DNA from: Candidatus Latescibacterota bacterium
Lineage (GTDB): Bacteria > Latescibacterota > UBA2968 > GCA-2709665
Direction of reading: 5' to 3'
Assembly: GCA_965219995.1 (NCBI GenBank)
Contig: CBDCOX010000002.1
Coordinates: 4,928,001 to 4,992,000 of the forward strand
Length of the DNA stretch: 64,000 nucleotides
In this document: in pieces, positions 53,331 to 53,681 of the stretch
How the letters are laid out: every line of letters begins with the position of its first letter
Position numbering within the stretch: the first letter of the stretch is position 1
Notes under the pieces: model-generated
Told to the model about the DNA's origin: nothing
What the model saw: only the letters and a program-made list of their open reading frames with translations
Databases searched by the model: none
Program-made: the position numbers and the translations under genes

Positions 53331-53681
53331 CTACTTTTTCTTCTTTTCTTTATCGTCGTCCTGTGTCTGTACTTCTGGCACCGGGTGCGGCTTGGGCGGG
53401 TACTGGGTGTGGCAACTCGCGCAGTTATTGATGACTCCCTGAAGGGAACCGACATTGGCGCCTACGATAGCCCCTCCCACGACCCCAACTACGCCACCTC
53501 CGGTAAGAGCGCCTCCCAAAGCGCCACCTCCGGTTCCCCACGCAACATCGCTGAAATATCCAATAGCAGGGCCAAGATGTGGTGCAATTCCTACCGCTTC
53601 CTCCTCTGCGTTCTCTTGCTGAGAGCTCGGAGGCGCCACGTACGTTGCATCCGGTTCGGCAGTAGCGAAATTAGACGACAT
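53331..53681 (-). CDS. 116-aa putative exported peptide/bacteriocin-like precursor: acidic N-terminus, glycine zipper, CxxCH, Pro-rich and charged tail
   Basis: Strong RBS AGAAAGGAG; GTGGGALGGALTGGGVVGVVGGAIVGANVGSLQG; CASCH; last gene of the HlyD-ABC-CPBP run. Confidence 0.75.
   Translation of the reverse strand: MSSNFATAEPDATYVAPPSSQQENAEEEAVGIAPHLGPAIGYFSDVAWGTGGGALGGALTGGGVVGVVGGAIVGANVGSLQGVINNCASCHTQYPPKPHPVPEVQTQDDDKEKKKK

Follow-up and report, generated by a model that had tools for sequence, protein, structure and literature searches.

We analysed a 64,000-nucleotide stretch of the genome of a Candidatus Latescibacterota bacterium (contig CBDCOX010000002.1, positions 4,928,001 to 4,992,000; hereafter, the window), which encodes on its minus strand a 116-amino-acid peptide from a family of small proteins that is, judged from Pfam and NCBIfam and from full-text literature searching, undescribed, as are its invariant signature and its occurrence in the uncultured phylum Latescibacterota. 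This signature is simple, namely one histidine and a C-x2-3-C-H motif placed at the two ends of a hypervariable segment that is predicted to fold into a helical hairpin, and each copy is encoded with its own CPBP-family protease and its own exporter, in a cassette that is swapped between strains. The best explanation that we can offer is an exported, bacteriocin-like hairpin peptide with a cargo-specific CPBP and a metal or redox clamp formed by its His/Cys/Cys/His residues, carried by a self-contained, horizontally mobile peptide-export unit; taken as a whole, we regard this composite as evenly poised between right and wrong.

Members and conserved features of the peptide family

A preliminary description of this sequence had read the open reading frame (ORF) as an acidic, Pro-rich N-terminus followed by GALGGALTGGGVVGVVGGAIVGANVGSLQG, NNCASCH, a Pro-rich stretch and DDDKEKKKK, an arrangement that matches the translation (Table 1). 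Because 32 distinct homologues with in-frame insertions and deletions were recovered and a strong ribosome-binding site is conserved, this is a real gene; in the related genus, AAAGGAG likewise precedes the peptide ATG at seven of seven loci. A 159-amino-acid ORF on the plus strand (53241-53720) lies antisense over the entire peptide gene and is taken for a shadow frame of it.

A word-indexed search returned the peptide itself and a single other protein, 93% identical, and an exhaustive HMMER search added four more relatives of 107-131 amino acids along with one multihaem protein, to which we return below. A search for the neighbouring CPBP across 168 genomes of the phylum identified 17 places in 13 genomes, at most of which a small ORF with a small-residue-rich centre and a C-x2-3-C-H motif lies directly downstream of the CPBP gene. 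Further searching with a profile and with a sub-alignment of the C-terminus raised the collection to 32 distinct relatives, which stem without exception from Latescibacterota genomes or metagenomes, and a motif-blind search of the same 168 genomes with the peptide profile yielded 14 places in 10 genomes. None of the 17 members scanned against Pfam and NCBIfam matched any family beyond sub-threshold, low-complexity matches, and full-text literature searches on the gene combination of the cassette or on bacteriocins with haem motifs did not retrieve any such family. A metagenome scan with the back-translated pattern PPVPEI[ED]T proved too generic, with at least 120 matches and no member in any of the 80 loci examined. 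One candidate, a "CHSCH" ORF beside a generic CPBP gene (L034), was rejected, as it overlaps two far longer ORFs in other frames and has a Gly+Ala fraction of 0.14.

The CxxCH motif highlighted in the preliminary description is conserved across homologues, Cys, Cys and His being kept in 31 of the 32 distinct relatives (a figure that is in part selected, see below). It takes the form C-x2-C-H in 17 of them and C-x3-C-H in 14, all of the latter reading C-[YW]-x-x-C-H with Tyr or Trp behind the first Cys, and the remaining relative (L010) is a 74-amino-acid variant without the motif. In an alignment of the 31 motif-bearing sequences, H35, C87, C90 and H91 are invariant and D11 and A38 nearly so, D11 being kept in only 19 members of a separate 24-sequence alignment; exactly two Cys are present in 28 of the 31. 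By chance, a CxxCH arises in 7 of 20,000 shuffles of the window peptide. Between the upstream His and the first Cys lie 35-57 residues that are hypervariable and rich in small residues, and the tail behind the motif His ranges from 1 to 36 residues, one subfamily ending in …CQNCHK, …CVNCHQKK or …CGTCHRP. Some members carry an extra basic N-terminal module (MxKLxKxPxxSY…YAY), which the window peptide lacks, and the "PHP" behind the motif of the window peptide is not conserved in the family.

The glycine zipper that was pointed out earlier is a genuine property of the window peptide, in which 10 GxxxG pairs are found against 2.55 +/- 1.36 expected from whole-protein shuffles, with none of 5,000 shuffles reaching 10; within the Gly-rich core alone, there are 9 pairs against 5.3 expected, a number attained by 1.1% of shuffles. 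As a feature of the family, however, it does not hold up: the Gly fraction of the central segment varies from 0.05 to 0.33 across relatives, the window peptide being the maximum, so that the zipper belongs to the window copy and some relatives rather than to the family. The reported lack of a signal for the general secretory (Sec) pathway is borne out by a net charge of -7 and a negative hydropathy over residues 1-45, the sole hydrophobic stretch of the window peptide being the Gly/Val core (maximum 19-mer Kyte-Doolittle value of 1.73, residues 55-73). Similarly, the printed sequences of all 32 relatives are without an N-terminal hydrophobic stretch, a point that was computed for the window peptide.

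AlphaFold2 with the 31 sequences predicted a helical hairpin with helices at residues 33-59 and 63-86 joined by a turn at 60-62, followed by a short helix at 88-91 (predicted local distance difference test, pLDDT, 71-86 for residues 31-90 and 64 on average; predicted template modelling score 0.44), and with 17 sequences the prediction was unusable (pLDDT 49.7). Counting residues from the turn, H35 would lie opposite C87-H91 in this hairpin. With either C-x2-C or C-x3-C, we infer, both thiols come to lie on the same side of a helix, and a helix-borne site therefore fits better than a strict haem-lyase motif.

Structural and profile comparisons of the hairpin returned few distinctive neighbours. 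No Foldseek row was significant. Microcin E492 (MceA) in complex with ManYZ came first (E 2.5, probability 0.54, with 69 aligned columns at 29% identity), ahead of a Legionella Dot/Icm protein with a glycine zipper and of hairpins from alpha-pore-forming toxins. VIA-align retrieved common helical hairpin arrangements only, mostly small transmembrane hairpin subunits with Z of 5-6.7, and in PDB profile searching, the best match (E 0.012) was to an OmpA-family protein of the Legionella Dot/Icm system, in its glycine zipper. A PDB sequence search with the peptide alone gave chance rows only (E >= 1.5), and the ESM Atlas gave no usable match.

The five-gene cassette and its variation among genomes

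The peptide gene is the last of five co-directional genes, preceded in order by those for an AraC-type regulator, an HlyD adaptor, an ABC exporter and a CPBP protease, and the whole cassette lies within a low-GC (guanine plus cytosine) island (Table 1). The boundaries of this island were obtained from a BLAST comparison of 17 kb with 14 other genomes of the genus, in five of which (G010, G011, G017, G018 and G019) the flanks are only 18-44 bp apart, and the 7.7-kb segment is thus an insertion. The regulator has a degenerate receiver domain, as its Response_reg match scores 25 bits against a cut-off of 30.2, and a regulator gene also heads the related cassettes at loci that extend that far. The exporter aligns to model positions 137-692 of HlyB (TIGR01846) and 143-707 of bacteriocin_ABC (TIGR01193), i.e. 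from about model position 140 onward, and it therefore misses the N-terminal C39 peptidase domain. Within the CPBP, E199, E200, R204, F228, H232, H269 and N273 are invariant in nine of nine aligned subfamily members and fit the motifs EExxxR, FxxxH and HxxxN, by which this protease is catalytically intact. Its stop codon is separated from the peptide ATG by 39 nucleotides that include the strong Shine-Dalgarno sequence.

Table 1. Positions of the cassette features in the window, counted from its first nucleotide.
Feature	Positions	Strand	Remarks
Low-GC island holding the whole cassette	51766..59484		GC 0.40-0.52 vs about 0.60 in flanks; boundaries are BLAST break points
Promoter-like site upstream of regulator gene	58531..58560	minus	10/12 match to sigma-70 consensus; such sites not above shuffles regionally; positional hint only
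Response-regulator/AraC-type transcription factor, 247 amino acids	57636..58379	minus	HTH_18 4.1e-19, HTH_AraC 7.3e-13; Response_reg 2.2e-5, below cut-off
HlyD-family periplasmic adaptor, 425 amino acids	56283..57560	minus	HlyD_D23 7.7e-14, HlyD_3 4.1e-13, TIGR01843 1.6e-27
ABC exporter (permease and ATPase), 571 amino acids	54584..56299	minus	ABC_membrane 3.2e-43, ABC_tran 6.8e-32
CPBP/Rce1-like glutamic intramembrane protease, 288 amino acids	53721..54587	minus	PF02517 1.5e-17
Shine-Dalgarno sequence GAAAGGAG	53689..53696	minus	7 nucleotides before the peptide ATG; read from sequence
Peptide ORF, 116 amino acids	53331..53681	minus	ATG start; span includes stop codon; acidic N-terminus with DAT motif, H35, Gly-zipper hairpin, C87-A-S-C90-H91, Pro-rich charged tail
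His35 codon	53577..53579	minus	Invariant in 24/24 and in 31/31 aligned relatives (two alignments)
C87-A-S-C90-H91 codons	53409..53423	minus	Read by hand from sequence; C87, C90 and H91 invariant in 31/31 aligned sequences
230-amino-acid protein with hydrophobic N-terminus, inside the island and downstream of the peptide	52003..52695	minus	Weak HEAT_PBS 0.0043, below cut-off
Terminator-like hairpin ending the island's minus-strand genes	51945..51968	minus	8-bp stem, 6 GC pairs; consensus match only

The peptide is closely linked to this CPBP subfamily. At the whole-genome level, 13 of the 14 peptide places adjoin a CPBP gene of the subfamily, the 14th being a weak match at a contig end, and of another 80 CPBP loci, collected from different genomes with a CPBP alignment as query, the four close ones have a peptide gene 42-50 bp downstream vs none of the 76 generic ones. 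Identity to the related genus decreases from the ABC exporter (77-79%) and the HlyD adaptor (58-62%) to the CPBP (40-53%) and the peptide (29-46%). With the exporter well conserved and both CPBP and peptide divergent, the exporter is best seen as a chassis, and the cargo and its CPBP as an exchangeable pair. One genome (G088) encodes three complete, divergent cassettes. A predicted complex of the CPBP with the peptide scored 0.09 vs a mark of 0.32, and counts neither way.

The same chromosomal site is occupied in two genomes of the same genus (G015 and G008) by a related island with transposases of the Mutator and DDE types. Relative to the window, its HlyD adaptor is 81-83% identical, its ABC exporter 68-74% and its regulator 55-58%, and its CPBP only 25-29%. 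The small ORF behind the exporter is unrelated there and without Cys-Cys-His, with 105 amino acids in G015 (L245:7251-7565) and 152 as called in G008 (L246:12070-12525). The latter ORF nonetheless holds MKTQLLKNPLHSY…VYAY, a stretch similar to the basic N-terminal module seen in some Cys-Cys-His peptides; both may have this in common as a leader for export or recognition. Two other loci include atypical cargo genes, namely a 119-amino-acid ORF with a similar basic N-terminus and without C-x2-3-C-H (L108:10459-10815, G136), and a 74-amino-acid Gly-rich ORF that has a single Cys and whose His is displaced (…NTCTGSRYHRLP; L105:10821-11042, G100). In a genome of the related genus, a decayed CPBP gene with five in-frame stops and exporter fragments alongside (L109; G087:C1:4093041-4093736) suggests that cassettes are lost as well as gained.

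Six related loci encode, in addition to the peptide, a fusion protease of S8 subtilase and DUF1611 (stretches of such extended cassettes: L021:5415-8749, L024:5078-8669, L103:1255-4142, L108:4557-7794 and L246:5700-9679). Genes for a GNAT acetyltransferase, for an acyl-carrier protein, or for a protein of 329-377 amino acids are present as well at several of these loci; this last protein matches BtrH_N in two copies, one of which also matches Peptidase_C39_2 and DUF4872, and nothing in Pfam in a third. Such an accessory set looks like an acyl- or aminoacyl-transfer module, which may modify the peptide. When 13 proteins of related islands (including the GNAT, S8-DUF1611, acyl-carrier and C39-like proteins and two transposases) were searched by tblastn against the window island, only the CPBP itself matched, and searches of the window genome with the S8-DUF1611 fusion and the BtrH_N-like protein as queries retrieved no orthologue of either. 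Since no trace of the accessory genes was detected, the window cassette represents the minimal form, with the CPBP as its only protease.

Proposed mechanism and competing explanations

In the mechanism that we favour, the ABC/HlyD pair would pump the peptide out of the cell, and the CPBP would act as its cargo-specific partner, either as a maturation protease in the manner of MroQ and SilX or by protecting the producer through proteolytic immunity in the manner of Abi proteins and SkkI. One report describes removal of the AgrD leader by MroQ and a dependence of SkkI immunity on proteolytic activity (PMC10482373), and in another, SilX is required for bacteriocin production and is proposed to act on SilCR (PMC9298176). 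The released product would be a bacteriocin-like, membrane-active helical hairpin, with a glycine zipper in the window copy, and the variable arm of the hairpin would set target specificity. Its open end would be clamped by the His/Cys/Cys/His centre, which could bind an ion of Zn, Cu or Fe or provide a redox-active dithiol beside a His, the simplest forms being a Cys2His2 metal site or a dithiol by His. Considered separately, these components differ in strength: export of the peptide with a cognate CPBP is probable, an antagonistic function comes close to an even chance without quite reaching it, and a metal or redox clamp at His/Cys/Cys/His is possible, if somewhat doubtful.

The earlier proposal of a bacteriocin-like exported peptide is thus partly upheld. 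It gains from the HlyD adaptor, the ABC exporter, the CPBP/Abi protease, the strain-specific low-GC island and the use of the same hot spot by other cargo in sister species, but the zipper on which it was founded is not family-wide.

Several observations weigh against this interpretation. There is no double-glycine leader on the peptide and no C39 domain on the exporter, which sets the system apart from canonical class II microcins. Both ends of the peptide are conserved and its centre is variable, unlike the usual combination of conserved leader and variable core. The conservation of the motif in 31 of 32 relatives is partly a product of selection, because some members came from a motif regular expression or from motif-containing queries, yet the profile search of the 168 genomes, which was blind to the motif, brought in L010 as the only member that lacks it. 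The cassette does not include an outer-membrane channel gene, although no search aimed at TolC-like genes was made, and the hairpin model itself is of moderate confidence. Finally, bis-His c-type haem has the same signature, a conserved His beside the second Cys and a distal one, so that the metal reading is a preference rather than a result.

This last point leads to the first of the alternatives, in which the peptide would be a mini c-type cytochrome or haem peptide, exported to the periplasm by the ABC transporter and loaded by Ccm with haem on C87 and C90, with H91 and H35 as axial ligands and the small-residue helices packing around the haem. In its favour, the C-x2-C-H motif and the distal His are conserved, haem sites with C-x3-C-H and C-x4-C-H exist in nature, and the genome encodes a Ccm system I, with CcmE at 87.6 bits plus three matches to Cytochrom_C_asm that pass the cut-off (CcmF-like and CcmC-like); ResB was not found in the genome. 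There is also a precedent for periplasmic delivery without a signal peptide: QhpC, a small, leader-bearing polypeptide, is protease-trimmed and reaches the periplasm via the efflux ABC transporter QhpF, as reported in PMC7876137.

Much of the remaining evidence runs the other way. None of the 32 relatives has an N-terminal hydrophobic stretch, and close relatives alternate between C-x2-C-H (17) and C-x3-C-H (14). Such a mix of spacings within one cytochrome c family is unusual. Exporters coupled to HlyD normally bypass the periplasm, and the cassette includes neither a haem gene nor a Ccm gene. The 17 members scanned gave no match to a cytochrome model of Pfam or NCBIfam, and the PDB profile rows for cytochrome c7 (E 0.82) and cytochrome c' (with a C-terminal CxxCH; E 4.5) are not significant. 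The likeness to a multihaem protein comes down to motif and composition: this 1,813-amino-acid protein (P0004; E 4e-9 over 9 stretches) was rejected as a homologue, with an hhalign probability of 10.5% and BLAST pieces made of CxSCH and prolines, and the "PHP" behind the motif of the window peptide mimics its CxSCHGxPPPxPHP repeats.

The suggestion that the motif binds haem or a metal, or forms a disulfide, therefore survives in part, with Cys, Cys, His and the distal His all conserved but with varying spacing, no signal peptide and no cytochrome homology; for these last three reasons, covalent haem on the peptide is improbable. Equally improbable is its fullest version, a Sec-independent haem peptide delivered to the periplasm by ABC/HlyD, loaded by Ccm at C-x2-3-C-H with H35 and H91 as axial ligands and trimmed or released by the CPBP, to serve as a secreted, redox-active mini-cytochrome with the role of a bacteriocin or of an extracellular carrier of electrons or haem; the mini-cytochrome explanation in its general form we consider unlikely. 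The idea of a "Trojan horse" entering target cells through haem uptake finds no support, and the cassette contains no receptor or haem gene.

Another unlikely explanation is that the peptide is a secreted signal, i.e. a pheromone processed by the CPBP, exported by ABC/HlyD and feeding back on the response-regulator/AraC protein, comparable to SilX/SilCR or MroQ/AgrD. A regulator gene does head the window cassette and those related loci that reach that far, and CPBPs mature signalling peptides in streptococci and staphylococci, according to two reports (PMC9298176; PMC10482373). On the other hand, the cassette has no histidine kinase and the receiver domain of its regulator is degenerate, and peptides of 100-140 amino acids with an invariant His/Cys/Cys/His are unlike known pheromones. 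With up to three divergent cassettes per genome (G088) and differing cargo at one site in sister species, antagonism fits better than signalling.

Alternatively, the peptide may not be exported at all and instead be an inner-membrane hairpin that serves the exporter or the CPBP as accessory subunit or regulator, the true substrate being something else. Its structural neighbours, mostly small transmembrane hairpin subunits that all score within the range of common arrangements (Z 5-6.7), would agree with this, as would the complete lack of charge over residues 46-86 of the window peptide and its hydropathy peak of 1.73. In most relatives, however, the central segment includes 2-8 charged residues and would make an implausible transmembrane helix, its hypervariability is unexpected for a structural subunit, and the minimal cassette offers no other candidate substrate gene, which leaves this explanation unlikely as well.

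Least probable of all is that Cys-Cys-His is a CaaX-like processing mark for the CPBP, with the Cys modified, the downstream residues removed and the variable tail a propeptide: the CPBP family name does refer to CaaX proteases, and a post-His tail of 1-36 residues that is nearly absent in one subfamily looks dispensable, but the distance from Cys to C-terminus is variable, unlike in CaaX proteins, the minimal cassette has no prenyl- or acyl-transferase, and the invariant upstream His is left unexplained.

Comparison with known systems

The cassette type, i.e. a peptide with ABC/HlyD export and a CPBP, is of an already known kind, and the exported, bacteriocin-like peptide proposed here can be set against several established systems. 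Class II microcins such as microcin V and microcin E492, with export of the CvaA/CvaB type, resemble the proposed system in combining a small, Gly-rich, hydrophobic ribosomal peptide, ABC and HlyD genes, a mobile strain-specific locus and a cognate protective gene. Double-glycine leaders follow a consensus of 15-25 amino acids ending in GG or GA, and inspection of the peptide and of the 31-sequence alignment revealed no such leader before the core. Unlike in microcin systems, the window cassette thus has no double-glycine leader and no C39 domain on its exporter, its neighbouring gene encodes a CPBP protease rather than a small immunity protein, and there is no sequence similarity. We know of no microcin counterpart for a His/Cys-x2-3-Cys-His signature combined with conserved N- and C-terminal modules. 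Type I secretion offers a related parallel in its peptidase-less ABC exporter and HlyD adaptor genes beside a candidate substrate gene, although the C-terminal tail is absent from one subfamily of the peptides.

A second comparison takes us from what we assume to be a diderm lineage to Gram-positive bacteria and their CPBP/Abi systems, namely MroQ, SilX/SilCR/angicin and SkkI. Both arrangements place a CPBP gene with intact motifs beside genes for a small peptide and a transporter, and either maturation or immunity would fit, going by the corresponding reports (PMC10482373; PMC9298176). The phylum is a different one, however, the window cassette includes an HlyD adaptor, and there is no sequence relationship between the peptides.

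Small bis-His and class II c-type cytochromes share with the window peptide a CxxCH near the C-terminus and an invariant distal His, along with a Ccm system I in the genome, but differ from it by the absence here of a signal peptide, the varying Cys spacing, the lack of a matching family model and the Gly/Ala-rich, low-complexity surroundings of the motif. The QhpC/QhpE/QhpF system resembles it in joining a signal-less, small, Cys-bearing polypeptide with a subtilisin-like (S8) protease that cuts a leader, ABC efflux and an AraC-type regulator (PMC7876137). QhpC is the gamma subunit of quinohaemoprotein amine dehydrogenase, and the S8-DUF1611 likeness applies to several related cassettes and not to that of the window. 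There is also no radical-SAM enzyme, flavoprotein or dehydrogenase subunit here, the CPBP replaces or joins the S8 protease, and no sequence similarity was found. Finally, glycine-zipper membrane proteins (SlyB, Rick_17kDa and Dot/Icm OmpA-like lipoproteins) share a GxxxG-rich helical hairpin with the window peptide, SlyB being retrieved by structure with Z 5.8, but the latter lacks both lipobox and signal peptide, matches no Gly-zipper model of Pfam at E <= 0.01, and has a zipper that is not family-conserved.

If these peptides are bacteriocins, they would extend CPBP-linked peptide antagonism from Gram-positives to the Latescibacterota, presumably a phylum of the Fibrobacteres-Chlorobi-Bacteroidetes (FCB) group, and would represent a further bacteriocin architecture, a hairpin with a metal or redox clamp. 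If they instead bear haem, they would be, to our knowledge, the first Sec-independent c-type haem peptides. With its five genes, the minimal cassette is of a size suited to direct heterologous work.

Two minor features of the window may be mentioned in addition. The 230-amino-acid protein encoded inside the island downstream of the peptide has no NCBIfam match and no homologue in the 13 related loci compared, and could be an additional immunity or accessory protein, or unrelated cargo. Beyond the island, stretches at about 61690-62020 and about 63000-63240 (about 210-330 bp) occur in many copies with 78-91% identity in this genome and in others of the same genus, and look like a dispersed repeat family.

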